Assembly (NCBI GenBank): GCA_964515115.1
Contig: CAZESB010000005.1
Location: 1-46,662, forward strand
Reading direction: 5' to 3'
Source of the DNA: an uncultured Pseudomonadales bacterium
Lineage (GTDB): Bacteria > Patescibacteriota > Microgenomatia > UBA1400 > PJMF01
DNA: 46,662 nucleotides
Below are positions 1-20,454 of this stretch, in pieces (position 1 is the first letter of the stretch; each line of letters begins with the position of its first letter). The notes under the pieces are model-generated. The model saw only the letters and a list, made by a program, of their open reading frames with translations, was not told where the DNA came from and made no database searches. Both the position numbers and the translations under genes were made by a program.

Positions 1-54
1 TAGAGCAACTGCCTTCTAAGCAGTAGGCCGCAGGTTCGAATCCTGCTTGGCGCA
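1..54 (+). tRNA. tRNA-Arg (anticodon TCT), 5' part cut by the window edge
   Basis: Anticodon stem actgc/gcagt with loop c-t-TCT-a-a. T-arm gcagg-ttcgaat-cctgc, then acceptor 3' strand ttggcgc plus discriminator a ending at 54. Confidence 0.85.
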
Positions 55-155
55 CTCAGAAACTGTTCCCAACCCATCGTCGATCTCTCATCTATTATTT
101 TTCTCTTACAAGCTTCTGCGGTTGAGTTAATTATCCTCGCTTATAGTTAGGACTC

Positions 156-503
156 ATGAATAGAAGAAGAACGACCTCACACACGGAAATCAAGCACTGG
201 GCGACCGAAAGAGGAGCCAAGCCTGCTTTGTCATATGTTTTGACTCAACAAGAAGGCGGAAAGCTAGAAAAAGAGTTGGTGTTTGTTTTTTCCGACTCAA
301 TTTCAGAATCGGCGGCTCTAAAGTTTTTAGACTGGGATAAGTTTCTCAGAATTTTTGATAAGCAAAGGTTATATTTACTTTACGACGAGGTGGAGCAGAA
401 AAGTGACTACTACAGTTTTGAGCAGTTAGAAAATCTTGAGAGTTTTTACGCTGATAATAGCAAAAATTGGCAGCAGAGAACTAAAACTATGGTTTATAAA
501 TAA
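156..503 (+). CDS. small conserved hypothetical protein
   Basis: ATG ORF of 115 aa. The N-terminal TTSHTEIKHWATERGAKPA stretch recalls a widespread small bacterial protein family of unknown function (recognised from memory, not searched). Confidence 0.55.
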   Translation: MNRRRTTSHTEIKHWATERGAKPALSYVLTQQEGGKLEKELVFVFSDSISESAALKFLDWDKFLRIFDKQRLYLLYDEVEQKSDYYSFEQLENLESFYADNSKNWQQRTKTMVYK

Positions 504-586
504 AAGTAAAAGCTAACCAACTAATTGATGCAAGGCGGAAATTTAGCCGTTGCTAGATTCCCCATTTTTGTTACGATGGTTCGGCT

Positions 587-1051
587 ATGGAATTAAAGAG
601 CCGCTATTATCTCAAGGTACCCAAATCAACAATTTTACTTACTTTTTTTGCTCTTTTTAATTTAATCGCTTTAAGTATCTATCTTTGGCTATCAGCCGCT
701 GCCATTCCACAATACTTGTTTTTTATTCTTTCTTTTGCCGGATTTTACATCGGTTTTTCGATCTTCAAAATCATCTGGTGGAACGTGTTTAGTCGCGGAT
801 GGCTGAAAATCACTTCGGAAAAGATCTCTTTCATGAAATACTTTTCGGCCACCACTATCAATATCGAGGATATTCTTGATATTAATATTCCCGGCCTGGA
901 TGATTCGGCGCCACTTTCCGACTGCATTAATATTTCGGCCATTGCTTCACATCTGCAGCAAACCACTTTTCAGATAATTATCCCCATGGTTTTCTTCCCT
1001 TTGGAGGACCAGGAATTACTGCCACTTCTCCTCAGCAGCGTGACAAAATAG
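587..1051 (+). CDS. hypothetical membrane protein
   Basis: ATG ORF of 154 aa with two N-terminal hydrophobic helices (ILLTFFALFNLIALSIYLWL and LFFILSFAGFYIGFSIF). No recognisable catalytic motif. Confidence 0.5.
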   Translation: MELKSRYYLKVPKSTILLTFFALFNLIALSIYLWLSAAAIPQYLFFILSFAGFYIGFSIFKIIWWNVFSRGWLKITSEKISFMKYFSATTINIEDILDINIPGLDDSAPLSDCINISAIASHLQQTTFQIIIPMVFFPLEDQELLPLLLSSVTK

Positions 1052-1067
1052 CCTGGTTTAGTATAAT
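1040..1067 (+). promoter_or_regulatory. putative sigma70-type promoter for tRNA-His
   Basis: GTGACA (1040-1045), a 16-nt spacer, then TATAAT (1062-1067), about 20 nt upstream of the tRNA 5' end. Confidence 0.4.
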
Positions 1068-1086
1068 ATAACTTCCACGTGTCGAT

Positions 1087-1161
1087 GGTGGTATTAGCTC
1101 AGTTGGTTAGAGCGCCTCCCTGTGGAGGAGGAGGTCGCCGGTTCGAGTCCGGTATACCACC
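1087..1161 (+). tRNA. tRNA-His (anticodon GTG) with extra 5' G(-1)
   Basis: Acceptor gtggtat/ataccac preceded by G-1 opposite discriminator C. D-arm gctc-agttggtta-gagc. Anticodon stem cctcc/ggagg with loop c-t-GTG-g-a. T-arm with ttcgagt loop. Confidence 0.9.
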
Positions 1162-1236
1162 CAGACTTTTAGCATGATTACCCCCCCCTAGCGAGAATCA
1201 AAGTGATTATTGCAAATCCATCTGAGTAGTAATTAT

Positions 1237-1245
1237 TGCTATAAT
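1237..1245 (+). promoter_or_regulatory. extended -10 box (TGcTATAAT) placed for a leaderless ANT(6) transcript
   Basis: TGCTATAAT at 1237-1245, with 6 nt between the hexamer and the ATG at 1252. No Shine-Dalgarno sequence. Confidence 0.45.
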
Positions 1246-1251
1246 TTGCCT

Positions 1252-2088
1252 ATGAATACTTCAAAAGATTTGGTTATAGAAAAATTAAAAAAGTGGGCTG
1301 AGGTAGAAGAAACAGTATTGGCATCAATCTTAACTAGTTCAAGAGCTAATGCTAGCTCTAACGTGGACGAGCTCTCTGATTATGATGTGGCGCTGTATGT
1401 TAGAGATTCAAGTAAATATCTTAATGATGACTGGTTAACTACTTTTGGAGATGTTCTGATCAAATGGCCAGAGCAACCTCAGACAACTTTCGACAAAAAT
1501 TGGATCACAAGGTTAGTTTTATTCCAAAACAAAACAAGAATAGACTTTCAAATCACGACTAATGCATTGATTCCCCCTTCTGACTATGATTTTGGTTACC
1601 AAGTTCTAGTAGATAAAGAAAATATAGCTACAAACTTTCCCAAAGCAACTTTGAGTGAGCAAATTATCAAAAAACCTACGCAAGCTGAGTTCGCTACTCT
1701 TATCAACGATTACTATTGGGATAGTACCTATGTAATTAAAAACATAATTAGAGGCGATCTTTTTTATGCAAAATATATGTTTGATTCAGTAATGAGGTTT
1801 GAATACTTTGAAAAAATGATTGAGTGGTACATTGGTTCAGCAAATTCATGGAGTGTAGGAACCAATAAGCACGGTCGAGATTTTCAGAAATATCTGGATC
1901 AGTCCACCTGGGATGAGATACAACAAACATTCGCTGGTGCTGACTTACAGCAAACTAAAACTGCTTTTTACAAAATGAATGAGCTTTTCAATAGGTTAGC
2001 AAAATTTGTTGCTAAAGATCTGAACTACAAATTTCCAGATGATTTAGTCGAACATATGAATAGATATTTTAGTTCGGTCAATAAATAA
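1252..2088 (+). CDS. aminoglycoside 6-adenylyltransferase, ANT(6)/AadK family
   Basis: Collinear resemblance to B. subtilis AadK (recalled from memory). Matching stretches are SDYDVALYV; RIDFQI; EFATLINDYYWDSTYVIKNIIRGDLFYAKYMFDSVMRFEYFEKMIEWYIG; and YKFPDD near the C-terminus. I prefer the ATG at 1252 over the TTG at 1210 in the ORF track. Confidence 0.8.
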   Translation: MNTSKDLVIEKLKKWAEVEETVLASILTSSRANASSNVDELSDYDVALYVRDSSKYLNDDWLTTFGDVLIKWPEQPQTTFDKNWITRLVLFQNKTRIDFQITTNALIPPSDYDFGYQVLVDKENIATNFPKATLSEQIIKKPTQAEFATLINDYYWDSTYVIKNIIRGDLFYAKYMFDSVMRFEYFEKMIEWYIGSANSWSVGTNKHGRDFQKYLDQSTWDEIQQTFAGADLQQTKTAFYKMNELFNRLAKFVAKDLNYKFPDDLVEHMNRYFSSVNK

Positions 2089-2134
2089 GTAATTTTTATA
2101 TCCTGATGGCTGATATTTGTGAGATTTCATTAAG

Positions 2135-2259
2135 CCTCAACCTAACCAACCCCACCTGCACCGCATCATCAAAAGCTGATAAAATACGCTCAATAGACTT
2201 GATAATACCCGAGTCCAGATCTAAACTTGTATTTCTGGGTATTGGACCCATTGCTTTTA
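2135..2259 (+). repeat. cassette-boundary repeat R1
   Basis: cctcaacctaaccaacccc-ACCTGCACCGCATCATCAAA...AAACTTGTATTTCTGGGTATTGGACCC-attg-CTTTTA. The 96-nt core spans 2154-2249. Same orientation as R2-R5. Confidence 0.9.
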
Positions 2260-2375
2260 AGCCACAACTTGTCCCCCTTACTAATACTTGTAAGTAACTT
2301 CATTCCTCAATGATTTCGCATTGGACTGATACAATAAACGCAATTGTCAAAAACTGAGTAAAATCAGGAAGATCT

Positions 2376-2831
2376 ATGAGAATAATCCACCGCACTATAG
2401 TTGCTGCTCTCATTTTTTCTAAAGATGGCAAATTGCTCATTGGAATGAAAGACCAAGCCAAAGGTGGCGTATATACTGATTGTTGGCACATCCCGGGAGG
2501 TGGTATTGACGAAGGTGAAGACAAAATTACCACTCTGAAAAGAGAATTGGTAGAAGAAGTTGGTCTTGATATAACAAACCAGAAGATCAGCTTAGTGAGC
2601 GAAGATGGTAAGGGAGAAAGCGAAAAAACACTCGCAAATGGGGAGAAAGTACTTTGTGAAATGAGTTTTTATGTTTATAGGGTGGATCTAGATCAAGATG
2701 CTATCGTAGTACAAGTTGAACTTAATGATGACCTAGTTAAAACCGAATGGGTAAACTTGGATCAACTCTCCAACTATAAGCTTACGCCACCTTCGATTCA
2801 ACTATTCACAAAACTTGGCTGGCTTGAATAG
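2376..2831 (+). CDS. Nudix hydrolase
   Basis: Nudix box GGGIDEGEDKITTLKRELVEEVGL (GX5EX7REUXEEXGU). AGGAAG Shine-Dalgarno 6 nt upstream of the ATG. Confidence 0.85.
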   Translation: MRIIHRTIVAALIFSKDGKLLIGMKDQAKGGVYTDCWHIPGGGIDEGEDKITTLKRELVEEVGLDITNQKISLVSEDGKGESEKTLANGEKVLCEMSFYVYRVDLDQDAIVVQVELNDDLVKTEWVNLDQLSNYKLTPPSIQLFTKLGWLE

Positions 2832-2856
2832 AATAAAGTTGTCTTATCTCAGTAGA

Positions 2857-2980
2857 CCGTAGCCTCACCACCCCAACCTGCGCCGCATCATCAAAAGCTG
2901 TTAGAATTCGCTCAATAGAACTTGTAATAACCGAATCCAGATCTAAACTTGTATTTCTGGGTATTGGACCCATCCTTTTA
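2857..2980 (+). repeat. cassette-boundary repeat R2
   Basis: Aligns without gaps to R1 at an offset of +722. The core spans 2876-2971, with about 11 mismatches in 96 nt by hand count. GGACCC is followed by atc-CTTTTA. Confidence 0.9.
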
Positions 2981-3097
2981 ACCTGAAACAAGATACCCTG
3001 ACTGATAATTACAAGTATTCTTCCTCTTTAAATTGGTGGATTTTTAACTTAATTTTCAGAACCAAGAAAAGCAATATTTTGATATGATGTATGTAAT

Positions 3098-3925
3098 ATG
3101 AAAATACTAGTTATAGGTGATATACACATTGGTGATTCTAGAGAATCCACAACTCATCCAGGTATCGTTAGACAAGCAAACACACAATCGGAAAAAACTC
3201 TAAAAGATTTAATTCCAAAACTTAATAATTTTGGTTTTGATCTAGTTGTTCATTCTGGTGATGCATTAAGGGATACATACGAAAAAGAAGTTGATGAGAC
3301 AAACCTCACCAAGACACTTACCTTATTAAGTGAACTGAAAGTGCCAACAATTCATCTAATTGGAAATCATGAACTCAGGGCATTCTCAAGAAACGAGGTT
3401 GAAAACATTTATAGAAAAGCAAAAATAGATCCCATATTCTATGGCATGCAGGAGTACTCCGATTTTCGCATTGTATGGTTAGATATCGAGTTGGATAGTA
3501 ATGATAAAGCATATTTACCTAAAAACACACTCGAATGGCTTGACACGCTACCCAAAGATAACAAGCCATCAATTATTTTTTCTCATTACTCATTAATACC
3601 GATAGATGAAAAAGGCACTTTTTACTTTGAGAAACAACCAGAAACCATGCACCTAGAAAATGCTACTGATGTTCGAACAGCTCTCGCCCATATAAACCCA
3701 CTGATTCATATTAACGGCCATGTGCATTTACTTACCCACCAACAAGAAAACAAAACCCACTATATTTCAGCTCCGTCTTTTTCTGAAAACATTGCGGGCG
3801 AAACTCACTTAGACAACAATCCAGGTATCTATTCAGTTTTAGAAATAAAGGACACTACTTTTGTTTTTTCCACTTACAGCGGTCAATTTACATTTGCAAA
3901 AATTCAAGGAGAACTAGAAAAATAA
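3098..3925 (+). CDS. metallophosphoesterase (calcineurin-like)
   Basis: Motifs GDIHIGD, GDALRD, GNHE and GHVH appear in canonical order. Confidence 0.8.
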   Translation: MKILVIGDIHIGDSRESTTHPGIVRQANTQSEKTLKDLIPKLNNFGFDLVVHSGDALRDTYEKEVDETNLTKTLTLLSELKVPTIHLIGNHELRAFSRNEVENIYRKAKIDPIFYGMQEYSDFRIVWLDIELDSNDKAYLPKNTLEWLDTLPKDNKPSIIFSHYSLIPIDEKGTFYFEKQPETMHLENATDVRTALAHINPLIHINGHVHLLTHQQENKTHYISAPSFSENIAGETHLDNNPGIYSVLEIKDTTFVFSTYSGQFTFAKIQGELEK

Positions 3926-3935
3926 GGAAGAAAAT

Positions 3936-4286
3936 ATGCCATTAAAGTTTCAAATTAAACACATTTCACAAATTCCGTTCGAAGGAACCCATGCATTACC
4001 AAATACTAGGCAGACTCTTGCGACAAAAGATGATGTTGTTACTGACAACATTGATGCACTCACCAAAGGTGTTTTACCACCCGGAAAAGTTTGGGATTGG
4101 CATAAGCACGAAGAACATGATGAGCTCTGCATCGTATTGAAAGGTGAAGGGAAGTTCTTTTGGGAGGATGAAGTCGTTGACTACAAACCAGAAGATGTGA
4201 TTATTATTCCTGCTAACAGCACACATAAAATTGAAGCACTTGGCGATGTTAATAATGAGTTTTATTTTGTAAGAATCAAAATTTAA
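3936..4286 (+). CDS. cupin domain protein
   Basis: Cupin motif 1 WDWHKHEEHDELCIVLKGEG and motif 2 IIIPANSTHKIEALG. AAGGAAG Shine-Dalgarno upstream. Only 10 nt after the preceding gene, so probably one transcription unit. Confidence 0.8.
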   Translation: MPLKFQIKHISQIPFEGTHALPNTRQTLATKDDVVTDNIDALTKGVLPPGKVWDWHKHEEHDELCIVLKGEGKFFWEDEVVDYKPEDVIIIPANSTHKIEALGDVNNEFYFVRIKI

Positions 4287-4327
4287 CATCAACTAGTAAT
4301 AGTATTGATTGCAACTATCTCACCCAG

Positions 4328-4392
4328 TCTCAATCTCACCAACCCCACCTGCACCACATCATCAAAAGAATCAGTAAAACTCGGATCAATAG
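4328..4392 (+). repeat. cassette-boundary repeat R3 (left half only)
   Basis: tctcaatctcaccaacccc-ACCTGCACCACATCATCAAAAG...CAATAG matches the first ~60 nt of R1/R4. The match then stops abruptly at the TTGACA of the TA promoter. Confidence 0.8.
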
Positions 4393-4426
4393 TTGACAAA
4401 CTGTAGTTTATAACCTACAATACAAT
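4393..4426 (+). promoter_or_regulatory. consensus-like promoter plus palindromic operator of the TA cassette
   Basis: TTGACA (4393-4398), exactly 17 nt, then TACAAT (4416-4421), followed by a second overlapping TACAAT (4421-4426) 6 nt from the ATG at 4433. The imperfect palindrome tgtagtttataacctaca (4402-4419) spans the spacer and -10. Confidence 0.6.
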
Positions 4427-4432
4427 TGTATC

Positions 4433-4744
4433 ATGGAAATCCTAAAAACAGACAGCTTCGATAAGTGGTTAAAGAAATTAAAGGATAAAAAAGCTAAAGC
4501 AATTATCCAAGTAAGCATCAACCGCTTGATCGAAGAAAATATAGGAAAAACAAGATCTCTAGGAGAAGGAATTCACGAAAAGAAAATTAATTATGGACCT
4601 GGATACAGACTATATTTTATAAACCACAACCAAAGCATAATAGTTTTGCTTTGTGGAGGAAATAAATCAACCCAACAAAGTGATATTAAACAAGCGAAAA
4701 TCATAGCTAAAGAAGTAAATATAGAAATGAAAGGAAAAATATGA
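4433..4744 (+). CDS. addiction-module killer protein (RelE/ParE superfamily, HigB/Gp49-like)
   Basis: FDKWLKKL...YRLYF...IIVLLCGGNKSTQQSDIKQAK is the signature of the 'putative addiction module killer' family. The stop overlaps the next gene's start by 4 nt (ATGA). Confidence 0.8.
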   Translation: MEILKTDSFDKWLKKLKDKKAKAIIQVSINRLIEENIGKTRSLGEGIHEKKINYGPGYRLYFINHNQSIIVLLCGGNKSTQQSDIKQAKIIAKEVNIEMKGKI

Positions 4745-5013
4745 AAATCACAAAATACAACGCAACCGATTATCTAAAAACAGAAGCAGATATCAAAGAA
4801 TACCTCAACGCTTCTTTTGAAACTGGAGACAGCAAACTAATTGCCAGAGCACTTGGCGATGTAGCCAAAATTAAAGGCATGAGCAAAGTTGCTAGGGCTA
4901 CTAAATTAGACAGAAGTAGTTTGTACAATTCCCTTACAACCGAGGGTGATCCAAAATTAAGTACTTTAACCAAACTCATTGAAAGCTTTGGGTATACTTT
5001 TTCAGTTAAATAA
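4741..5013 (+). CDS. addiction-module antidote protein (HigA-like HTH)
   Basis: YLKTEADIKEYLNASFETGDSKLIARALGDVAKIKGMSKVARATKLDRSSLYNSL is the typical antidote HTH. Translationally coupled to the killer gene. Confidence 0.8.
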   Translation: MKITKYNATDYLKTEADIKEYLNASFETGDSKLIARALGDVAKIKGMSKVARATKLDRSSLYNSLTTEGDPKLSTLTKLIESFGYTFSVK

Positions 5014-5032
5014 TGTTGCTGATTTCTGCTAG

Positions 5033-5172
5033 TCGCAACCTCACCAACCCCACCTGCACCACATCATCAAATGCTGTTAAAATCCGCTCAATAGACTTCG
5101 CAACAACCGAGTCCAGCTCTAAACTTGTATGTCTGGGTATTGGACCCCAAACTTTTATCTTCGGTTGAGTTA
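5033..5172 (+). repeat. cassette-boundary repeat R4 (with downstream CGGTTGAGTTA box)
   Basis: Aligns without gaps to R1 at an offset of +2898. The core spans 5052-5147, with about 12 mismatches in 96 nt. GGACCC is followed by caaa-CTTTTA. The 11-mer cggttgagtta at 5162-5172 recurs at 118-128. Confidence 0.9.
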
Positions 5173-5253
5173 CCTTAACCAATAATTAAAAGAAGCTTAG
5201 TAAGCTAGGCTGACTATGATTGTTAATTCACAATAATCTGTTATTCTAAATCT

Positions 5254-5679
5254 ATGATTACAATAAATCCTTGGGTTAATTTCAACGGTAATGCTGAAGA
5301 AGCATTTAGCTTTTATAAATCTGTTTTTGGGGGAGACTTTTCAAAAGTCATACGCTTCAAAGATATCGCAACGGAGGAATTTCCTGTAGCAGAAAATGAA
5401 GCAGAAAAAATAATGTACATTGCATTACCTATTGGGAATGGTGCGATGATGATAGCCAATGATGTCCCAGAAGTTTTGGGGCGAGTCAATGAACGCGAAA
5501 ATCGTAGCAAAATTGTGGTAAGTACTGGAAGTAAAGAAGAAGCAGACAGATTATTTTCTGCCCTTTCTGCTGGAGGAGAAGTAGAAGGACCGATAGGTGA
5601 CAGTCCCTGGGGTTCGTATGCGGGTATGTTTCGAGATAAATACGGTATTGAGTGGATAATTGAATTTACCCCAAACTAA
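5254..5679 (+). CDS. VOC/glyoxalase-fold protein (PhnB-like)
   Basis: INPWVNFNGNAEEAFSFYKSVFGG...ANDVPE...DKYGIEWII is the typical PhnB / 3-demethylubiquinone-9 3-methyltransferase-domain pattern. Confidence 0.75.
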   Translation: MITINPWVNFNGNAEEAFSFYKSVFGGDFSKVIRFKDIATEEFPVAENEAEKIMYIALPIGNGAMMIANDVPEVLGRVNERENRSKIVVSTGSKEEADRLFSALSAGGEVEGPIGDSPWGSYAGMFRDKYGIEWIIEFTPN

Positions 5680-5740
5680 TAGAGTCAGAGCATACACACA
5701 TTTTTTTTCAGATCTGCTTGAGATTTTTGATTTCGTTTAA

Positions 5741-5856
5741 TCGCAGATCAACCAGCTCAAACTGCACCGCATCATCAAACACTGCCAAAATACGACTAAC
5801 ACACCGAGAGATTACTTCATTAAACTGTTCATTTGTAATACTTGGTGACGGACCCC
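5741..5856 (+). repeat. cassette-boundary repeat R5 (divergent copy)
   Basis: AACTGCACCGCATCATCAAAC...AAAATACG on the left and TTTGTAAT...GGTGACGGACCC on the right. The core spans 5760-5855 and is exactly 96 nt as in R1/R2/R4. The central ~30 nt is essentially unrelated. About 60/96 identical to R1 by hand count. Confidence 0.7.
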
Positions 5857-5898
5857 AGGTAATCGCGTTTCATTATGACAAACTAAAAAACAAGACCC

Positions 5899-6786
5899 AT
5901 GACAGACGAATCACTGAGATTACCACAAGCATTACAGTGGGAAAAAATTACTTCTGATAACCGAGAGCTTTCTCCCGAACAACAGGAGAAGTTTGCTCAA
6001 GTCATTGGTCGGACATTAGCATCATCGGAAGTTCTTAGACTTCAAGCCCAAGAGCAAGGTATCAATATCTCAAAAGATTCAATTCAAACAACTTTTATTT
6101 TGCTTGCTGAGGTCATATACGACCTTTTAGAAGCCTCCTCAATAGACACTATTCCCTACATCATTCCTGTTCCTAACCTGGATGAAAAAAAGATTGCGGC
6201 TTACACTAAAGACCTTGAAACAGGTCGGCATCTCATCATTTTTAGCTCAAAGAAAATTGCTCAAGCTGCACAAGTTTTAGAAGATGCAGCAAACGATACC
6301 CCTCCTATACAACTCACTACAGATGAACTAGCTGAGGCAGTATATGCAATCGCTCACGAAATGGGACACCTGCGTCAGAGTGAAAAACTTCCATATTTCC
6401 ATGAAAAAGAAGCTCATAATACAGGCAATTGGGAACATACCCAAGAAAATCTTATGGCATATAATAATGACTTAGCAGAAACAAATGCCCATGCTGTAGC
6501 CATTCGTTATCTCAAAGCAAAAAAACAAGCGGAGCAACAAAGTCCGCTGTGGCAAGCGTTAGATTTTTCTAGAGTGATAGGTCGTACTATAGAAATACAA
6601 GGCAGGCACAAAATGTTAGCTGATATTCTCAAAGTTAACAAAATTATCGATGAAAGAGATGAAACTATAGATTCGGAAACCTATACGAGATTGCAAAAAA
6701 GAGCAAAGTTATTGGTGGAAAGGATTCAAAGTAGCTACGCTAGACTTGATAAAGCTCATGAGAAACTTGGGAGTACGACACTCTAA
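5899..6786 (+). CDS. hypothetical protein with HEXXH zinc-metallopeptidase-like motif
   Basis: ATG ORF of 295 aa. The only recognisable element is AIAHEMGHLRQSE (HEXXH). The rest is helical and charged, and I cannot assign a family. Confidence 0.55.
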   Translation: MTDESLRLPQALQWEKITSDNRELSPEQQEKFAQVIGRTLASSEVLRLQAQEQGINISKDSIQTTFILLAEVIYDLLEASSIDTIPYIIPVPNLDEKKIAAYTKDLETGRHLIIFSSKKIAQAAQVLEDAANDTPPIQLTTDELAEAVYAIAHEMGHLRQSEKLPYFHEKEAHNTGNWEHTQENLMAYNNDLAETNAHAVAIRYLKAKKQAEQQSPLWQALDFSRVIGRTIEIQGRHKMLADILKVNKIIDERDETIDSETYTRLQKRAKLLVERIQSSYARLDKAHEKLGSTTL

Positions 6787-6821
6787 CAAGCTCCCGTGAT
6801 CTGCTCCCAAGTGTTTTTTTT
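6765..6821 (+). terminator. putative intrinsic terminator
   Basis: acttgggag (6765-6773) pairs with ctcccaagt (6804-6812) and is followed by g plus eight T (6814-6821). The loop is long (~30 nt), so this is only moderately convincing. Confidence 0.4.
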
Positions 6822-6916
6822 CGAGAGTTTCAGGCACTCATTAACATGCGTTGAAACCATTAGTGTCTGTTACAATTATTGTATTATCAAACTACTCTAA
6901 AATACTTGATGTCGCT

Positions 6917-7132
6917 ATGCAACTTGGCACCTACAAACACTACAAAGGCAAATATTACCAAGTGATTGGGATCGCCAAGCATAGTGAAACTGAAGAAGAC
7001 TTAGTTGTGTACTTCTGCCTTTATCCTAATAAAAAAGGACAGATCTGGGTACGACCACTAAAAATGTTCCAAGAGACAGTAAGCATTGGCGGCAAAGAAG
7101 TGCCAAGATTTCAACTACAAGCACGCACTTGA
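6917..7132 (+). CDS. DUF1653-family small protein
   Basis: GTYKHYKGKYYQVIGIAKHSETEEDLVVYFCLY...IWVRPLKMF is the characteristic DUF1653 pattern. I prefer the ATG at 6917 over the TTG at 6851. Confidence 0.7.
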   Translation: MQLGTYKHYKGKYYQVIGIAKHSETEEDLVVYFCLYPNKKGQIWVRPLKMFQETVSIGGKEVPRFQLQART

Positions 7133-7180
7133 TTGGGTTAACAAAAAAGCAAATCAAAGAAATCAACTCACAATCAAAAC

Positions 7181-7738
7181 CTACTCATTCCCAATAATCT
7201 CAGCCAGATCTCGCCAAAAATCCGTATTATCGCGTTCAACCTCCCGACCGGTAGCTATTTCCTCAGCTATGCTAATTTGGGAACCCGGAGTCGCTATCAC
7301 TTGCAAACAAGGGGACGTGGGATGCGTGCCTCTAATTTCATTTAAAAAGTGCCTTTCACGCTTAACCACAGCTGTTTTGACAGATTTGCCATCGTGATAA
7401 GCATAATAAGAAATGAGAAAAATCCTGCGATCTTCGATACCGCGCATCAAACGCAGCCAATCTTCCGCCACCAAGAAATCATTACAAAGTTTCATGCCAG
7501 TACCAGGAAACCCTCGCAGCGCTGAAATTGACCAAGTATCGTCATTCACCAAAATCGGTTGCTGAAAATGATTGTAGGCTTGCGCCGCTTTGTCGCGAAC
7601 AATCGCGTTGCCATTGGCAGATTGAATTTCTTGCATTTCCAGACGCCGATGAACTAGTTGAATTCCATACTACTGTAAATTAATTTTTGCCGCGTTAAAT
7701 TTATCTTGATTGGTGGTGACGTATAAAATTTGACTCAT
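7181..7738 (-). pseudogene. Ham1/RdgB-family non-canonical NTP pyrophosphatase interrupted by an in-frame TAG
   Basis: The ATG at 7738 gives MSQILYVTTNQDKFNAAKINLQ (the TGNxxK-type N-terminus). Codon 23 is TAG (7670-7672). The same frame then continues YGIQLVHRRLEMQEIQS...ILVNDDTWSISALRGFPGTG (the DDSGL..AL.G.PG motif) down to 7181. Confidence 0.6.
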
Positions 7739-7826
7739 GGTTGATATTATAGTGAGCAAAAAAGGAATGTCATTCGTTAAATAACTTAACGCACCAACCA
7801 AAATCAAATTCTGCTACAATCACCTC

Positions 7827-8381
7827 ATGAAGACTCCTCCTCATACCATCACCTGCAAAGACATAGAAGGCAATACCTACCAAGTTCCGGCAAACGAGCT
7901 GGCTTTCCGTCCCGCGGTATACGCGGTGATTATTAAAGATGGTCAGATTCTCATGTCCAAACAGTGGGATGGCTATGACTTTCCTGGCGGCGGCATTGAA
8001 CTCGGGGAACCCACAGAGAGCGCCTTAATCAGAGAGGTAAAAGAGGAAACTGGTGTTGATGTTGTGGTCAACAACATTATTCAGTGCCAGGATTCTTTTT
8101 TTAAACTGCCTTTTAGTGGCACCTTCGTTCACTCAATTCATTTGTATTATCAGTGCCAAATAATGGGCGGCGAGCTGAGCGCTGAGTTTCTGAACGAACA
8201 AGAAAAACAGTACGCTGGCGAACCAGAGTGGTTGGAGCTGAATAAAATTAAGAATGTGAAAATATACACTTCCGCCGATGTTGATAAGCTTTTGGAGAGT
8301 TTTTATTCTGAAAATTTGGAGCAGACCGGGAGAGCCGCCAGCCCCCTCGGACGAGATACTAGAAGATCAGAAACAAGATAG
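7827..8381 (+). CDS. Nudix hydrolase
   Basis: Nudix box GGGIELGEPTESALIREVKEETGV. Confidence 0.8.
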   Translation: MKTPPHTITCKDIEGNTYQVPANELAFRPAVYAVIIKDGQILMSKQWDGYDFPGGGIELGEPTESALIREVKEETGVDVVVNNIIQCQDSFFKLPFSGTFVHSIHLYYQCQIMGGELSAEFLNEQEKQYAGEPEWLELNKIKNVKIYTSADVDKLLESFYSENLEQTGRAASPLGRDTRRSETR

Positions 8382-8397
8382 CTTCCTTGACAACCGT

Positions 8398-8426
8398 TTG
8401 ACAATCACTCAAAAATGTCCTATAGT
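8398..8426 (+). promoter_or_regulatory. putative promoter of the nuclease gene
   Basis: TTGACA (8398-8403), 17 nt, then TATAGT (8421-8426). A second TTGACA lies at 8387-8392. Confidence 0.45.
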
Positions 8427-8458
8427 AAATTATAGGAGCAAATTAAGAAGATTGAGTA

Positions 8459-9535
8459 ATGAAAAGCAAGCTGTTGGTGGGAATTGGTTGGTTGAGCGGA
8501 GGTTTCTTAGCGCTGCTTGGTCTCGGTGCAATGATCACCGGCGATACATTAGCAGCCATGTCTGTTCTAGCTCTGGCTTTTTTAGTTTCACCCTTAGCAA
8601 ATCGTTATTTGTTTAGCAAATTGCAGTTTGTCGTGCCAGCGTGGGGCAAGATACTTTTAGGTATTTTGCTTTTCTTTGCTTTTGCCGATAACCTCACACC
8701 AACAGAGCCAGCAGCCGAGCAGGAGCAAATCGAAGAGCCGGCTGTAGAAACTCAAAAAGAAGCTAATTTCGCGGAACCGGAAACAATTTATTACCAAGTG
8801 GCCAGTATCACCGATGGCGACACCATCAAAGTTATCATTGGAGATAAAACTGAAACCATTAGGTTGGTCAATATCAATACTCCGGAAACTGTCGATCCTC
8901 GTCGACCGGTAGAATGCCTGGGCCGGGAAGCCAGCCAGAAAATGACCGAGCTGGTGAGCGGTAAAAAAGTTGAGCTTGAAACCGATGAAACTCAAACCGA
9001 TCGCGACCGTTACAATCGCCTGTTGAGATTTGTTTTTTTGGAGGACGGTACTGATGTTGGGTTGGAATTAATCAAACTTGGCTTTGCTCAATCAAGTCCT
9101 TACGGCAATTCACCTCACAAATATCTTGAGCAATACGAAGCGGCACAAAAAGAAGCTCAAGACGAAGAGCTCGGCTTGTGGAATCCAAGTGCCTGCGTTG
9201 TAGCAGCACCTCCCGCTCCGGTTGCCCCCGTAGTCGTGCCTGCATCTACACCCACGCCTGCATCCACACCTACATTTGCGCCAACTTCAACCCCGGTTCC
9301 AGTTCAAAAACCACCAGCAAACTCAACCGGTGGATCAGCTGTTGGTGCTGCCAGTGGAACCACCGCGCCAACCCCTCAACCAACCGCCGCCACAGGCACT
9401 TACGTCTGCAATTGCCAAAAAACCTGCCCCCAAATGTCCTCTTGCGCCGAAGCCCAATACCAACTCAACGTTTGCGGTTGCAAGGCCAGAGATGGAGACG
9501 GCGACGGCATTGCCTGCGACGCTCAGTGCCAATAA
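8459..9535 (+). CDS. membrane-anchored/secreted thermonuclease (SNase) with C-terminal Excalibur Ca-binding domain
   Basis: N-terminal TM helices. SNase core DGDTIKV...IRLVNINTPE...ECLGREAS...DRYNRLLRFVF. A Pro/Thr/Ala-rich linker. A Cys-rich C-terminus ending ARDGDGDGIACDAQCQ (Excalibur DxDxDGxxC). Confidence 0.85.
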   Translation: MKSKLLVGIGWLSGGFLALLGLGAMITGDTLAAMSVLALAFLVSPLANRYLFSKLQFVVPAWGKILLGILLFFAFADNLTPTEPAAEQEQIEEPAVETQKEANFAEPETIYYQVASITDGDTIKVIIGDKTETIRLVNINTPETVDPRRPVECLGREASQKMTELVSGKKVELETDETQTDRDRYNRLLRFVFLEDGTDVGLELIKLGFAQSSPYGNSPHKYLEQYEAAQKEAQDEELGLWNPSACVVAAPPAPVAPVVVPASTPTPASTPTFAPTSTPVPVQKPPANSTGGSAVGAASGTTAPTPQPTAATGTYVCNCQKTCPQMSSCAEAQYQLNVCGCKARDGDGDGIACDAQCQ

Positions 9536-9539
9536 ACTC

Positions 9540-10256
9540 TCAAATTATCAACAATAAACCAGAAACAATCACCATCAAATAAATGAGATAGCGCAGCCAA
9601 AGCGAATTGAGTTTTCTGAATAATTTTGCCCCCACAAAAATACCCAGCACCAAAAAAGGCAGCGACAAAACGCTGTAAGTAATCACAGTTCCGGTAACTC
9701 TGCCGGCAAAAGTATGACCAATGACAATAAATACTCCCGTTACAAACATGTAGGTAGCAATGATGTCCTTGCGTTTGACCGCAGAGTTGCGCTTGTTATT
9801 AGCGGCATGGATACCGAGCAACGGGCCGTTAATATTCAAGGTAGCCCCAAAAAATCCGGCAATAAAGCCAACTGTCGCTCCCACTCGTTTCTTCTGGTAG
9901 GGGATTGGTATTTTTTTGGCGAACAAACTGCAAACCGCCACCAAAATCAGCATGATTCCTAAAATTATCGCCAATAAACGATCATTGATTGAGCCCAAAG
10001 ACATCAACCCAAAAGGAATGCCTACCAAAGAACCGCCAAAAAGCGGCAACAATAATTTGCTAAGGCCATTGGTTTTAGTTTTGTAAGCCACAATAGCGGT
10101 GGCAATCAAAGAAATAATAGCTACCAGCGGAATAACCGTTTGTAGAGGTAGAATAAAAGGCAATAACGACATGGAAATAGTAGAAATACCAAAACCAATC
10201 AGCTCCGCGCCCATACCGGCAAGAAAAAAAGTCAGCGCCAGGAAAAGTAGTTCCAT
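9540..10256 (-). CDS. TauE/SafE-family (DUF81) anion exporter membrane protein
   Basis: Polytopic; MELLFLALTFFLAGMGAELIGFG...G.FGG motifs are typical of TauE/SafE. I prefer the ATG at 10256 because the longer ORF start would overlap mgtE. Confidence 0.7.
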   Translation of the reverse strand: MELLFLALTFFLAGMGAELIGFGISTISMSLLPFILPLQTVIPLVAIISLIATAIVAYKTKTNGLSKLLLPLFGGSLVGIPFGLMSLGSINDRLLAIILGIMLILVAVCSLFAKKIPIPYQKKRVGATVGFIAGFFGATLNINGPLLGIHAANNKRNSAVKRKDIIATYMFVTGVFIVIGHTFAGRVTGTVITYSVLSLPFLVLGIFVGAKLFRKLNSLWLRYLIYLMVIVSGLLLII

Positions 10257-10272
10257 CCGTCCAGTATAGCGG

Positions 10273-11289
10273 TTACAACATGATTGTGGCCACACTCAAA
10301 TAAATGGCAATGCTGGCGATATCCAGCAAAATAGTAGCAAATGGCCCACTGCCATTGGCGGGATCTTGGCCCAGTTTATTCAAAAGATAAGGAATGGTAA
10401 TTGAGATAAAAGTCGAAAAAATGATGGCAATCATGCCAGCTAGACCCACCACCATTCCCAGATAAGCCGTCTGCCACAAAATAAAAATCGATAAATAAAT
10501 CAGCACACCGCAAAGTAGAGCAATCAAGCTGGTAATAACGATTTGTTTGAAAAAATAAATCAACATGGGGATTTTGGTTCTCATTACCAAGTCTCTGATA
10601 AAAAGAGTTTGGGTTTGATTGCCGACAGCCGCGCTAATGTAAACAATCAGGGGAATAAAGGCAGCTAAAATCAAATTCTTTTCAAGTGTCTGGGCAAATG
10701 AGCTAACAATTTCTGCTGCCAAAAAACCACCAAATAAACCAATGACGATCCAAGGCGCTCTTTTCCCAAACGAACTCAGGATTGATTCACTCAAAGTGTC
10801 GTGATGTCCGGCTTCATAACCCAAAATACCGGCCGATTTATAAATATCCTCTCGATATTCTCTCTGAAGAATTGCCAAAATTTTGTCATTGGGCACTACC
10901 CCGAGAAAATTGTTCTTATTATCTACAATAGGGACTGATTTAATGCCGTGTTTAAGAGCAAAGTTGGCCACTTTTTCTTGGCTAACTTGCGGACTGCTAG
11001 AGTGAACTGAGGCGATCATCACTTCACTGACGGGCTTTTCCGGTGGTTCAATCAATAATTTACTAAATGAGAAAACACCGGTTAATTTGTTGCTTTTGGT
11101 TAAAACATAAACATAATTGATGCTATCGTGATCTTGAATTTGATTGATAATACGAGCCCGAGCCTCACCAATGCTTTCGGCTGAGTAAGCTACTGGAATC
11201 GTGGTATCAATATGATGGGCAGCCGCGTCCTTTGGCAGCTTGAGATTTTTGAGATTTTGCTTGGCGTGGCTTAACCAGTTATTTTCCAT
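10273..11289 (-). CDS. mgtE: magnesium transporter MgtE (CBS pair plus TM domain, short N-terminus)
   Basis: CBS-pair region followed by APWIVIGLFGGFLAAEIV...AAFIPLIVYISAAVGNQTQTLFIRDL and ...GQDPANGSGPFATILLDI, the MgtE channel motifs. Confidence 0.85.
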   Translation of the reverse strand: MENNWLSHAKQNLKNLKLPKDAAAHHIDTTIPVAYSAESIGEARARIINQIQDHDSINYVYVLTKSNKLTGVFSFSKLLIEPPEKPVSEVMIASVHSSSPQVSQEKVANFALKHGIKSVPIVDNKNNFLGVVPNDKILAILQREYREDIYKSAGILGYEAGHHDTLSESILSSFGKRAPWIVIGLFGGFLAAEIVSSFAQTLEKNLILAAFIPLIVYISAAVGNQTQTLFIRDLVMRTKIPMLIYFFKQIVITSLIALLCGVLIYLSIFILWQTAYLGMVVGLAGMIAIIFSTFISITIPYLLNKLGQDPANGSGPFATILLDIASIAIYLSVATIML

Positions 11290-11342
11290 GCTTTAATCAT
11301 ACCTAATTGCTAAAGAATAAGAAATGCTGTTATGCTAATTTT

Positions 11343-12596
11343 ATGAAAATCATCCATATTACGGCTTACGAAATCATTGCCTCAGGCGGCTATCCTACCG
11401 TTGAGGCGGTAGTAGCGCTTGATACCGGTCATCTGGGCAAGGCTTCGGTGCCATACGGAGCCTCTGCCGGCACCCATGAAGCAGCGGTGTTAACAGACGG
11501 GGATGCCCATCGGTATCAGGGCAAGGGCGTATTGAAGGCGGTGGCCAATGTTAAAGAGCTTATCGCCCCGGCGCTAGTGGGCAAATCTCCTGAGGATCAG
11601 AGTGAAATTGATGGGATTATGTTGGCGCTGGACGGTACTGAAAATAAAGCTAAGTTGGGGGGGAACGCTATTTTGGCGGTGTCGCTGGCAGCCGCCAAGG
11701 CGGCAGCAGCGGCCAAAAAACAATCATTTTTCCAACATCTGCGCCAGACTTTCAACATCACCACGCCGCCGCGGCTGCCCAACCCCATGATGGTAGTGAT
11801 TGAAGGCGGCAAACACGCCCACAACACCACTGATATGCAAGAGTACTGCATGACCGCTGTCACCAACGAAAGCAGAGCGGAAAACATTCGCAAGGTCCTC
11901 GAAAGCTACCATCAACTCAAGCAAGTCCTGCAAGACAATAGTCTTTCCACCAATGTCGGTAACGAAGGCGCCTTTGCACCAGAAAACATCTCATCCAATG
12001 AGGCACCGTTTGCATATGTTTTGCAAGCTATTGAAAAAGCCGGTTATCAGCCAGGAAAAGATATCAGCCTTTCTCTTGATCCAGCTGCCAGTGAGTTTTA
12101 TCAAGACGGTAAGTATCACCTCAAGCTTGAAAACCGCATCCTCACTGCCGCGCAGCTCAAAAGCTATTATGAAAGCTGGCTTAATCAATACCCGATTGCC
12201 ACTCTGGAAGACATGTTTGCCGAAGACGACTGGCAAGCTTGGATCGATTTTCTGCCGCTCGCGCAGCAACATAACGTCCCCCACATTGGCGACGATCTCA
12301 CTGTCACTGACGTTAAAAGACTTGATGAAGCCATTCAAAGAAAAGCTGCTTCCGGTATCTTGATCAAGCTCAACCAAATCGGTACTCTCACTGAAACTGT
12401 AGCCGCCTGCAAACTAGCCAAAGAACACAACCTCACCATCGTTCCTTCGCACCGCGGCGGGGGCGAAACCAATGACACCAGCATGGTGGATCTAGCCGTC
12501 GCGGTTGGCGCCGATTACATCAAAGTCGGACCAACCAGAGGCGAGCGGGTTTCTAAGTATAACCGCTTGATGGAAATTGAACGGGAAATGGCCTGA
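11343..12596 (+). CDS. eno: enolase (phosphopyruvate hydratase)
   Basis: MKIIHITAYEIIASGGYPTVEA...GASAGTHEA...DDLTVT...IKLNQIGTLTET...SHRGGETNDT is full-length enolase. TGtTATGCT extended -10 lies 6 nt upstream of the ATG at 11343. Confidence 0.95.
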   Translation: MKIIHITAYEIIASGGYPTVEAVVALDTGHLGKASVPYGASAGTHEAAVLTDGDAHRYQGKGVLKAVANVKELIAPALVGKSPEDQSEIDGIMLALDGTENKAKLGGNAILAVSLAAAKAAAAAKKQSFFQHLRQTFNITTPPRLPNPMMVVIEGGKHAHNTTDMQEYCMTAVTNESRAENIRKVLESYHQLKQVLQDNSLSTNVGNEGAFAPENISSNEAPFAYVLQAIEKAGYQPGKDISLSLDPAASEFYQDGKYHLKLENRILTAAQLKSYYESWLNQYPIATLEDMFAEDDWQAWIDFLPLAQQHNVPHIGDDLTVTDVKRLDEAIQRKAASGILIKLNQIGTLTETVAACKLAKEHNLTIVPSHRGGGETNDTSMVDLAVAVGADYIKVGPTRGERVSKYNRLMEIEREMA

Positions 12597-18316: not shown

Positions 18317-19450
18317 TTAATGCTGATGCTTGTGAGTAGTTTCTGCAGTAACAACCTCCCGACCGCTGGCCCAGTAAGCCGCGAAGGCAGTACTAAGTGG
18401 TACCGCCGCTACCAAACCAATAGAGCCCATCAAGGTACGCACTACTTCTTCCGCGATTAGCTGATTGTTGAGAATCACCCAAAGGGGAGTGTCAGCGCTC
18501 AGAGTAAACAGCAGAAAAATGGGCAAATTAGCGCCGGCATAGGCCAGCACCAACGTATTAACCAAAGAAGCCACGTGATCTTTGCCCACCCTCATACCAC
18601 GTTGGTACAAATCTTGAAAGGAAAGTTTTTTATTGGCCCGCCTCAACTCAAAAACTGTAGCAACTTGAGCAATAGCAATATCATCCAAAACACCCAACGC
18701 ACCCAGCATAATGCCACTGAGTAAAAGACCTTGCAAGTTAATCTTGGCAGTTGCGCCCACTTGCAAAAACGCTGCCTCCTCACTGCCAAAACCAGTCAGG
18801 TGGGCTAAATCAAGATACCAGGCAGAAAGCAAAGTCACACCCAAAAGAGTAGACAAAATCGAAGCCAGAGCAATATGAGACGAAGCCTTAAAACCATGAG
18901 AAAGATAAATGGTAATACCAGCAATCATGACAGCGCCGATAAGAGCCACCACCACCGGCTGAGCGCCATTGAGAATTTGCGGCACCACGTAACTGCTCAA
19001 AACCATCAGGCTCAAAAACATGCCGCCAATAGAAAATAAACCTTTAAATCCCGCCACCGACATCACGATCAAAAAAAATCCGGCCAAAAGCCAGGCCAGA
19101 ATTGGTAGTCTGTAGGTATCGGCCACTACTTGCTCGCTGTCACCTTCCGGCATGATTTGCTCCGCCACCACGATGTTGTCGCCTTTTGCCAGCAACTGGG
19201 TGCCACTGAGCGGCTGGAACTCGGAGCCCATCACCACTTCAGATTCCACACCGTCCCGCGATCTTACCAGCAGTTTTTGAACATAGAATATTTCAGCATC
19301 ATAAGTAAATTCCTGTTGTTCCAGCACCTCAATCACCTGGCCGGTAGAGTAGTGAGGTTCGGCCGTAACAAGCTCTGCTTGAGCGGAAATACTGAGCGGA
19401 AAAATAAAAAAGCTGGCAAGGAAAACCAAGCTAAACAGCACTTTCAACAT
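18317..19450 (-). CDS. YibE/F-family membrane protein
   Basis: Signal/anchor plus a soluble N-domain, then about 7 TM helices. GALGVLDDIAIAQVATVFEL resembles the GAxMDVAMSIAS motif of YibE/F. Confidence 0.6.
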   Translation of the reverse strand: MLKVLFSLVFLASFFIFPLSISAQAELVTAEPHYSTGQVIEVLEQQEFTYDAEIFYVQKLLVRSRDGVESEVVMGSEFQPLSGTQLLAKGDNIVVAEQIMPEGDSEQVVADTYRLPILAWLLAGFFLIVMSVAGFKGLFSIGGMFLSLMVLSSYVVPQILNGAQPVVVALIGAVMIAGITIYLSHGFKASSHIALASILSTLLGVTLLSAWYLDLAHLTGFGSEEAAFLQVGATAKINLQGLLLSGIMLGALGVLDDIAIAQVATVFELRRANKKLSFQDLYQRGMRVGKDHVASLVNTLVLAYAGANLPIFLLFTLSADTPLWVILNNQLIAEEVVRTLMGSIGLVAAVPLSTAFAAYWASGREVVTAETTHKHQH

Positions 19451-19486
19451 ATGCCATAGTATACCTTATGTGCTATAACAACAGTT

Positions 19487-20167
19487 ATGAAGAAAAGTTT
19501 TCAAATTGCCATTGATGGTACAGTTGCCGCGGGCAAAGGCACAGTTTCCCGAATTGTGGCTGAAAGATTGGGTTTGCTTTATATTGATACCGGTGCTACT
19601 TACCGCTGCACCGCGCTTTTGGCCCTTGAAGCCGGTATTAATCCAGAAAACGAACAAAAAGTTTTAGAAAAGCTCAATCAGCACACAATTAACATGCGCA
19701 TGCCCAATGAGGAAGAAAAAGACGGCCGCTTGGTCACGGTTTTGCTTGACAACGAAGATGTTTCCTGGAAAATTCGCACTGAAGAAGTTAGCCAAACCGC
19801 TTCTATTGTGGCTCAGCTTAAGGGAGTGAGAAAAAAGCTAGTGGCCCTCCAGCAACAAATTGCCGCTGAGAATGACGTCATTATGGAAGGGCGGGACATT
19901 ACTCACACCGTTTTGCCCAATGCTCAAATCAAAATTTATCTCGACGCTGATCCAATGGTGAGAGCCAAAAGAAGGCAGGAAGATCTGCTGGGGAGGGGCA
20001 TTGATGCGCAGCTTGTTGAAGTTCTTGATGAGTTGAATGCTCGTGACGAGCGCGATTCTAGAAAATACCTCAAAAAAGTTCCCGGCGTGTGGGTGATTGA
20101 TACTACTGCTTTGACAATTAGTGAGGTGGTGGAATTAATCACTGCCAAGGCTGAGCAGGTTCGGTAA
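19487..20167 (+). CDS. cmk: cytidylate kinase
   Basis: IAIDGTVAAGKGTVSRIVAERLGLLYIDTGATYR P-loop and CMP-binding pattern. TGcTATAAC box 7 nt upstream of the ATG. Confidence 0.9.
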   Translation: MKKSFQIAIDGTVAAGKGTVSRIVAERLGLLYIDTGATYRCTALLALEAGINPENEQKVLEKLNQHTINMRMPNEEEKDGRLVTVLLDNEDVSWKIRTEEVSQTASIVAQLKGVRKKLVALQQQIAAENDVIMEGRDITHTVLPNAQIKIYLDADPMVRAKRRQEDLLGRGIDAQLVEVLDELNARDERDSRKYLKKVPGVWVIDTTALTISEVVELITAKAEQVR

Positions 20168-20207
20168 AACTATTATCAAACAATTTTACATTCATTTGTT
20201 GCATGTA

Positions 20208-20282
20208 TGGAGCGGGTGAACGGAATCGAACCGTCATCTTCTCCTTGGAAGGGAGATATACTAGCCGTTGTACTACACCCGC
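20208..20282 (-). tRNA. tRNA-Gly (anticodon TCC), CCA encoded
   Basis: Reverse complement is gcgggtg-ta-...tctcc-cTTCCaa-ggaga...ttcgatt...cacccgc-t-cca, a cloverleaf with anticodon TCC. Confidence 0.9.
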
Positions 20283-20348
20283 ACGCATAAGTTAACATTC
20301 TACTGGAAATGGCAAAAAACGTAAATACTGGTGTTATAATACCTTGCA

Positions 20349-20431
20349 GCCGAAGTGGCGGAATGGCATACGCGACAGACTTAAAATCTGTTGGCCGCAA
20401 GGCCTTGTGGGTTCAAGTCCCACCTTCGGCA
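20349..20431 (+). tRNA. tRNA-Leu (anticodon TAA), long variable arm
   Basis: Acceptor gccgaag/cttcggc. Anticodon stem acaga/tctgt with loop c-t-TAA-a-a. Variable arm ggccgcaaggcc. T-loop ttcaagt. Confidence 0.9.
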
Positions 20432-20454
20432 CTCGGAATTGTATAAACACGAAA

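Follow-up and report, generated by a model that had tools for sequence, protein, structure and literature searches.

A stack of small gene cassettes at a Patescibacteria tRNA-His gene, probably inserted by large serine recombinases that split their own gene

In the stretch of DNA analysed here, contig CAZESB010000005.1 of a Patescibacteria genome (46,662 nucleotides, called the window below), functionally unrelated accessory genes follow one another on the same strand downstream of a tRNA-His gene and are divided by copies of one repeat, which raises the question of what the repeat is and how such an array came into being. Patescibacteria have tiny genomes with few recognised mobile elements, and no integron is reported from them in the literature that we searched. 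An original prediction, made from the letters of the sequence alone, had described an integron-like layout and had proposed either a different capture chemistry or the serial stacking of mini integrative elements; both alternatives fit the findings below. The repeats are the cut-off tails of a large serine recombinase (LSR) gene, left at the far end of inserts, and we consider it likely, with a probability of about 0.8, that small integrative cassettes are stacked in this region and were inserted serially at the tRNA-His 3′ end by an LSR family of Patescibacteria.

Between 2.1 and 5.9 kb of the window there are four full copies of the repeat (about 128 bp) and one half copy, all in the same orientation and all dividing unrelated, co-directional genes, with in-register starts at 2123, 2845, 4316 (left half only), 5021 and 5729 (R1 to R5). 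This part of the original prediction was confirmed by the in-register starts and by an nhmmer profile of the repeats, which recovered the five copies with E values of 1e-10 to 1e-41 and no sixth copy anywhere in the 46.6-kb window. R1, R2 and R4 are 80–84% identical to each other over 128 in-register positions, and R5, which has the same length, is 60–62% identical to them and represents a divergent class B, in agreement with the close trio and the roughly 60% identity at equal length noted before. Folded as single-strand DNA against 200 shuffles each, neither strand of R1, R2, R4 or R5 gave a structure better than the shuffled sequences (z from -1.24 to +1.95), and the sole recurrent fold element is a 5-bp stem, TGGGT..ACCCA. 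An Rfam scan of positions 1–9000 at E <= 1 gave just two tRNAs, with no RNA family on the repeats.

The repeat, described before as an element in the gaps between genes, is not a non-coding site. Every copy is open on the minus strand and encodes ..(W/M)GPIPRNTSLDLDSVIxKSIERILTAFDDAVQVGLVRLRLxEI... Among 27 distinct copies, the entropy is 0.875 at the third codon position versus 0.58 and 0.48 at the other two (permutation p = 0.0002), single-base codon differences are synonymous in 60% of cases in the coding frame versus 16–20% in control frames, and the indels are 12 or 15 nt long. For the tail peptide AlphaFold predicts with confidence one single long helix, on which ground a DNA-binding fold of the ribbon-helix-helix type was rejected; Pfam gave no match for four tail peptides, and a homolog search with the peptide profile returned short open reading frames (ORFs) only. 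The idea that the repeat is the displaced 3′ end of a gene resident in the chromosome on the right side of R5 was rejected as well, because no ORF extends upstream of R5.

The parent gene, which surfaced only through a serine-recombinase query, is ORF 4378–5991 of the related locus L009. It encodes a 537-aa protein whose C-terminus, ..RESWGPLPRNTSVIITRSIDRILMAFDDAVQVGLVKLRTTEIKSL, is the repeat peptide, and which is assigned to the LSRs because it carries the domains Resolvase (PF00239, residues 4–147, E 1e-32), Recombinase (PF07508, 171–258, E 3e-16) and Zn_ribbon_recom (PF13408, 273–331, E 1e-6). By tblastn, all repeats of 25 loci and of the window match residues ~487–531 of this protein and no other part of it. 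The repeat is the detached 3′ coding end of an LSR gene, and the window holds just the last ~47 LSR codons and no recombinase body; that no recombinase gene lies in the window had been stated correctly. Neither this minus-strand coding nor the start of the array at the tRNA-His 3′ end had been part of the original prediction.

How the tail comes to be detached can be seen in the relatives of the L009 protein. Among 120 homologs surveyed, 41 terminate within 5 residues of a conserved W/L-G position (~491) and 44 continue as antisense tRNA (for example ..WGGIPDSNRRPPLPQSGALTN, a backward reading of tRNA-His), that is, 85 either end at this position or run from there into antisense tRNA, and about 12–18 retain the helical tail. 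The LSR ORF enters tRNA-His in L027 and L029. In L027 the body (10001–11473) is 10.8 kb distant from its tail, at 606, and the two, when joined in silico, give an unbroken ORF of 543 aa that is colinear with L009 residues 1–530; the interval between them is occupied by cargo genes and by a conserved module (HTH_36, DUF6884, a small Resolvase ORF and the LSR). Full elements with cargo convergent on the tail are present in L027, L029 and L030. The reverse complement of the motif ACCC(C)A supplies the W-G codons TGGGGT, about 47 codons before the LSR stop. The rejoining of body and tail in L027, together with the W/L-G endpoints, therefore places the attachment core inside the recombinase gene.

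Some relatives show further arrangements of these genes. L026 carries three serine recombinase genes within 21 kb (1–3354, 10001–11554 and 19410–21028): the first is a 633-aa gene in frame with a class-A tail, adjoining cargo that abuts tRNA-Cys; the second (P0028) is cut at W-G and joined to neither a tRNA nor a tail; and the third, just 21% identical, adjoins tRNA-His. In L030, DUF6884, the small resolvase and the LSR are preceded by an ORF of the primase-type Zn_ribbon_DnaG and an AAA_25 ORF (7023–8829), which suggests replication of the full elements in the form of plasmid-like circles.

Alignment of the tRNA-His 3′ ends, all repeat ends and the downstream sequence across genomes showed that every unit boundary is ACCC(C)A, the motif common to the tRNA-His 3′ end and the repeat end. 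In five independent cases the sequence that follows a tRNA (..CCACCC(C)A) in one genome is the one that follows a repeat (..GGACCC(C)A) in another: the L001 tRNA corresponds to the window after R4, the L008 tRNA to the window after R2, the L012 tRNA to L017 and L007 after a repeat, the L017 tRNA to L001 after a repeat, and the L006 tRNA to L015 and L012 after a repeat. The tRNA-His and the repeat end are alike at ACCC(C)A and at about 10 of 22 neighbouring bases (hand count), and the crossover is narrowed to ACCC(C)A only. Many unrelated cassettes open with a type-1 leader of ~40 nt, (A)TCCTTTTAACCTGAAACAAGATACCCTGAC.., and others with AAGCGGAACTCTGGTTCCGG..; neither the type-1 nor the type-2 leaders have convincing similarity to the recombinase coding sequence upstream of W491. 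Read in this way, the array of the window consists of the following features:

1088..1162, plus strand: tRNA-His (GTG), found by ARAGORN and Rfam (68.6 bits); 3′ end ..GGTATACCACCC, with the core ACCC at 1159-1162 as chromosomal attachment site and start of the stack
1163..2249, plus: cassette 1, with leader, ANT(6) aminoglycoside nucleotidyltransferase gene (1210-2088; Pfam PF04439, E 2e-63) and tail R1
2099..2251, minus: R1, detached LSR C-terminal coding segment (MGPIPRNTSLDLDSGIIKSIERILSAFDDAVQVGLVRLRLNEI..) with the element-side (P) attachment arm; tblastn match to residues 487-531 of the L009 LSR, E 1e-9
2250..2971, plus: cassette 2, with leader, Nudix hydrolase gene (2376-2831; Pfam PF00293) and R2; core ACCC at 2968-2971
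2809-2973, minus: R2 tail ORF, matching LSR residues 489-530, E 3e-11
2972..5148, plus: composite cassette 3/4, genes by Pfam; block 93.6% identical in L008
3098-3925 and 3936-4286, plus: metallophosphoesterase and cupin genes (Pfam), which with a type-1 leader form the first part of composite 3/4
4292-4372 (ORF, minus) and 4316-4392 (repeat): R3, truncated tail inside composite 3/4
4393-4421: promoter match TTGACA-17-TACAAT of the toxin–antitoxin (TA) pair, in composite 3/4
4433-4744 and 4741-5013, plus: Gp49-like toxin and HI1420 antidote genes (Pfam), in composite 3/4
5009-5149, minus: R4 tail ORF, matching LSR residues 489-530, E 2e-10
5149..5856, plus: cassette 5, with leader, gene of a glyoxalase/PhnB-type VOC (vicinal oxygen chelate) protein (5254-5679) and tail R5; unit 100% identical in L001
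5711-5857, minus: R5 tail ORF, class B, matching LSR residues 488-531, E 3e-7
5857..7150, plus: distal flank, with a 295-aa ORF without Pfam match (5899-6786) and DUF1653 (6851-7132); Pfam, nhmmer and tblastn

The window hence has four recombinase-less units that bear tails and an intact tRNA-His gene, as judged by ARAGORN and Rfam; cassette 1, for example, is delimited by the tRNA core at its left and by the R1 core ACCC (2246–2249) at its right. The distal flank is not shown as a cassette because no recombinase tail comes after it, and tblastn found no relatives of its 295-aa ORF or of DUF1653 in the other loci. The claim that the repeat closes every unit holds for R1, R2, R4 and R5, but nhmmer detects no repeat after the last unit, and R3 lies inside one 2.2-kb block in L008. 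Of the gene calls, ANT(6), Nudix, metallophosphoesterase, cupin, TA, PhnB and DUF1653 agree with Pfam, but the ORF named after an HEXXH motif has no Pfam match; the TA pair has a promoter match of its own, as had been proposed. The low GC content of the array is real (34–39%, against 41–48% in the rest of the window), but the enolase region has about 48% and not 57%. In addition, the core palindrome TGGGTATTGGACCCA is followed by a T-rich run at 2236–2250 and 2958–2972, which is terminator-like on the cargo strand; such sites could end the cargo transcripts at every cassette boundary, and their total is not above chance.

The same core-to-core cassettes occupy different positions in the arrays of different genomes. 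Positions 5144–5855 of the window are 100% identical over 712 bp to 14076–13365 of L001, from core to core and with flanks that do not align, and this unit, which is cassette 5 in the window, is the first cassette after tRNA-His in L001 (Patescibacteria group bacterium UBA1396). Similarly, window 2968–5150 has 93.6% identity to L008 12162–10000, where it comes directly after tRNA-His. In L008 the metallophosphoesterase, the cupin, R3 and the TA pair make up a single 2.2-kb block, which shows R3 to be internal to a composite unit. The TA pair with its tail (window 4385–5147) also recurs at 83.6% in L012 (7696–8453) and L013 (4234–4991), where it comes after an APH gene without an intervening repeat, while in the window and in L008 it comes after the truncated R3; from this difference in placement, the TA module seems to enter units by a non-core route.

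Moreover, the repeats lie 0–9 kb downstream of tRNA-His in 12 related loci. L001 has seven of them between tRNA-His and a Ham1-like gene, a distal flank that it has in common with the window, and its run of seven units is wholly different from that of the window (glyoxalase; a 422-aa protein; YecM, dCMP deaminase and HD; 2-hydroxyacid dehydrogenase; Nudix and GNAT; metallophosphoesterase and methyltransferase; Exo_endo_phos). Genes for APH, GNAT, AbiEii, EamA and MFS proteins occur as cargo in further arrays. The same tRNA-His site and flank with different cargo mean that the site is conserved and its content is variable unit by unit; this presence/absence variation in related genomes was indeed found, and its absence had been named beforehand as a ground for refuting the original prediction. 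Full elements and cassettes are at one common site in L015, L026 and L027. A scan of a metagenome collection gave 7 loci only, and no relative was found among viral contigs. Furthermore, L015 (13373 onward) and L016 share 98.8% identity over the array and part company at a position that is not a core; past this point L015 continues into helix-turn-helix and type I restriction-modification genes as in the LSR element of L030, and L016 into an adh_short gene.

On these grounds we propose that a circular element would carry an intact LSR gene with the crossover core inside it, and that integration into the tRNA-His 3′ end would fuse LSR residues 1–490 to antisense tRNA and leave the 47-codon tail, and with it the element-side (P) arm, at the opposite end of the insert, beside the convergent cargo; full elements would in this way lose the tail of their recombinase upon entry. 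A cassette would be what extends from core to core, that is, leader, cargo gene or genes and tail, with no recombinase. When it is circular, its site would be composed of the tail-coding P arm, the core and the leader, and an LSR would recombine this site with the tRNA-His 3′ end, thereby restoring the tRNA up to the discriminator base. Most likely, the LSR of an intact copy elsewhere would move these recombinase-less units in trans. Because entry would take place at the tRNA-proximal core, the newest cassette should adjoin the tRNA and the older ones should have been displaced outward. The comparisons above show what the repeat is, where the junctions lie, that the gene is split in relatives, that cassettes are identical between genomes and that the site is conserved; the catalysis in trans, the insertion at an occupied site and the insertion order are what we infer.

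Several points weigh against this proposal. No LSR gene is found in the window, which comprises the entire 46.7-kb contig, and most arrays have none within 10 kb, so that action in trans is only presumed for this genome. To our knowledge, characterised LSRs do not integrate into occupied sites of the attL type unless they have special properties. Circular cassette junctions were not observed, and the viral contigs yielded no relative. The symmetry around the core is weak: gap-free dyad matches across it average 7.7 of 22 versus a background of 5.9, with 9–11 of 22 for type-1 leaders. An LSR binding arm should need only about 25 bp, versus the ~128 bp that are conserved in a coding pattern, although this conservation could be merely inherited from the full elements. 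Finally, some units have a truncated tail or none (R3 and the last unit).

A stronger version of the proposal would give the tail a role of its own. It is possible, at odds that we judge to be below even, that Patescibacteria have a serine-recombinase counterpart of integrons, in which cassettes made of a leader (P′ half-site), cargo and a tail (P half-site) are captured at tRNA-His by a self-splitting (‘suicidal’) LSR and the tail acts as a built-in switch. Integration would truncate the LSR, and a cassette landing between the tRNA and the split LSR would give the enzyme a new tail and re-arm it; the arrangement envisaged here, a cassette tail in frame after an LSR body, is present in L009 and L026. 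Such a role would explain protein-level selection on the cassette tails and, if true, would make this the first self-partitioning recombinase outside the archaea and outside the tyrosine family.

Alternatively, the units might be decay remnants of full LSR elements at tRNA-His that lost the recombinase body and the backbone by deletion, with tails that belonged to functional genes until recently. Full elements whose ends are built in the same way do exist (L027, L029 and L030), some tails are truncated (R3, besides partial copies in L001, L008 and L012), and the codon-level conservation would be explained without any function of the tail in cassettes. However, the left boundary is exact at the core in all units and what lies to the right of the core is a leader and not recombinase coding sequence, the ~40-nt type-1 leader is common to unrelated cargos, and identical or nearly identical core-to-core units at differing array positions across genomes are not expected of independent deletions. 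Thus, we regard decay as an unlikely origin, and serial insertion of cassettes by an LSR family as the better account.

The repeat could also be read as an independent small gene of about 50 aa, for example for a regulator, whose likeness to the recombinase tail is secondary. The strong coding signature, the confident long helix and the 24 small ORFs of 47–90 aa listed by gene callers agree with this, but the start of the tail ORF varies between ATG, TTG and TGG, which stand at the junction and come from the adjoining cassette, and outside the conserved 45 residues both the N-terminal and the C-terminal extensions are unrelated between copies. Moreover, the conservation starts exactly at the recombination core, and both L009 and the reconstituted gene of L027 have this sequence as the in-frame continuation of a 490-residue recombinase body, which makes a separate gene very improbable. 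Growth of the array by homologous recombination or duplication between repeats of ~130–190 bp, without any site-specific recombinase, is likewise hard to credit. The class A repeats are 80–96% identical and long enough for RecA-dependent exchange, and internal rearrangements such as the difference between L012 and L013 are not cleanly at the cores; yet joining is precise at ACCC in spite of the limited likeness of tRNA-His to the repeat end, and the class B copy R5, only ~60% identical, has the same exact boundaries. A classical tDNA island of the Islander type, with a tyrosine integrase, was rejected, since the 128-bp repeat is not a displaced piece of the tRNA gene but recombinase coding sequence. 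An ordinary chromosomal integron array or cluster of attC sites lacking integrases (CALIN), with its tyrosine integron integrase encoded elsewhere, would match the co-directional cassettes and the sedentary-integron-like cargo (TA pair, small enzymes, aminoglycoside-modifying enzyme) and can practically be dismissed, as the original prediction already held, because no repeat strand has attC-like folding, the boundary is ACCC|A instead of G|TTRRRY, the repeat is a fragment of a serine recombinase gene, no IntI gene lies beside the first cassette (which abuts tRNA-His, with two Pfam-less ORFs and tRNA-Arg upstream), and phmmer with IntI1 and XerD queries, a search of limited sensitivity, found no tyrosine recombinase among the ORFs of at least 80 aa in 345 kb (window and L001–L025).

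Some observations concern the surroundings of the array. The Ham1-like ORF at its distal flank (7181–7636, minus strand) has 151 aa and covers only positions 38–127 of the 186 of the profile, and the syntenic Ham1 genes in L001 and L015 encode 184–187 aa; the ORF of the window may be truncated at its N-terminus. Upstream, a partial tRNA-Arg (1–54) and tRNA-His are about 1 kb apart, and the two ORFs between them (156–503 and 587–1051, within 55–1087) have neither a Pfam match nor a tblastn match in any locus. The gap between the two tRNA genes is 20–40 bp in L004, L006, L008, L012 and L013, and there are inserts of 1.2–1.5 kb in L010 and L027, so the tRNA-Arg 3′ end may be a second insertion site. 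A low-GC stretch (36–37%) at 40000–43200 adjoins tRNA-Gly (43123–43197, minus strand) and may be another tRNA-linked island; its translations, identified by eye, include an aminoglycoside-phosphotransferase-like ORF (40056–40979) and one with the Fic motif HPFSDGNGR (41781–42839).

If the array was built by LSR-mediated insertion, the locus would be a concrete route by which Patescibacteria gain and shuffle genes for resistance, detoxification, nucleotide housekeeping, defence and TA functions singly at a fixed site, and integron-like cassette stacking would appear to have arisen by convergence on serine-recombinase chemistry. In addition, self-splitting, described as a peculiarity of archaeal tyrosine integrases, now extends to a large family of bacterial LSRs, in which no fewer than 85 of the 120 sampled homologs are split. 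Engineers could draw on this family for natural LSRs that have defined attB sites at tRNA-His and a C-terminal tail that can be removed.

The original prediction knew of no described system that fits, but several come close: the composite islands of the staphylococcal cassette chromosome mec (SCCmec/psiSCC), the Dehalococcoides ssrA islands, the accretion of cis-mobilizable elements and the self-splitting integrases of archaea. The first two are the closest in operation. The integrases of SCCmec are the large serine recombinases CcrAB and CcrC, which act at the rlmH 3′ end. Like the array, and with Ccr compared by description only, SCCmec/psiSCC uses an LSR at the 3′ end of a conserved housekeeping gene that is left intact, and has tandem elements between direct repeats, recombinase-less pseudo-elements in the stack, and accessory and resistance cargo. 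The array differs in that its target is a tRNA gene, its units have 0.7–2.2 kb with one to four genes instead of tens of kb, its repeat is ~128 bp of recombinase coding sequence instead of a core of ~15–18 bp, and recombinase genes of its type contain the attachment core and are broken in two when the element integrates. The Dehalococcoides ssrA islands are tandem and encode DsiB, a CcrB-like serine recombinase of ~540 residues, on the reverse strand beside attL, and next to it another, small serine recombinase; some lack an integration module and have been proposed to be cis-mobilizable (PMC3146451). Both systems have tandem units downstream of a tDNA-type gene, and a small Resolvase ORF stands beside the LSR in L027 and L030 as it does there. 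However, the Dehalococcoides islands are large, have a 20-bp direct repeat of ssrA and no described splitting of the recombinase (PMC3146451), while the array duplicates almost nothing of its target (ACCC(C)A) and its long repeat is recombinase-derived.

The splitting itself matches that of the archaeal ‘suicidal’ integrases (SSV1, pTN3 and pT26-2), in which the attachment site lies inside the integrase gene, integration into a tRNA gene partitions it and only the circle holds it intact; according to a 2021 review, these are tyrosine recombinases found only in archaea (PMC8371274). The LSR is not a member of this group, given its serine domain architecture and its Patescibacteria genome, and its split removes only a non-catalytic helical tail of ~47 residues, whereas the suicidal split removes the catalytic C-terminal part. 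In the integration-dependent immunity of mycobacteriophages, attP lies in the 3′ part of the repressor gene, and upon integration into a tRNA gene the repressor loses C-terminal residues, which alters the protein made from the integrated form (PMC4557955); there the gene cut is that of the repressor and the integrase is a tyrosine recombinase, while in the family of the array the recombinase itself is cut. With integrons the array has in common a fixed capture site, small one-way cassettes that each end in a conserved recombination element and are promoter-poor or self-promoted, TA modules inside the array and cassette variation from strain to strain. It differs from them by the lack of a tyrosine IntI and of a single-strand attC hairpin, by another boundary motif, by a tRNA 3′ end as the capture site and by its chemistry, which would be that of a serine recombinase on double-stranded sites. 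In the literature, the coverage of which is incomplete, we found no report of a self-splitting serine recombinase or of an LSR with attP in its own gene, none of tRNA-His cassette arrays in Patescibacteria and none of single-gene stacks of this kind. Compared with the known tandem integrative elements of serine recombinases, what is unusual in the present system is the self-splitting recombinase and the integron-sized, single-gene cassettes that end in recombinase tails.

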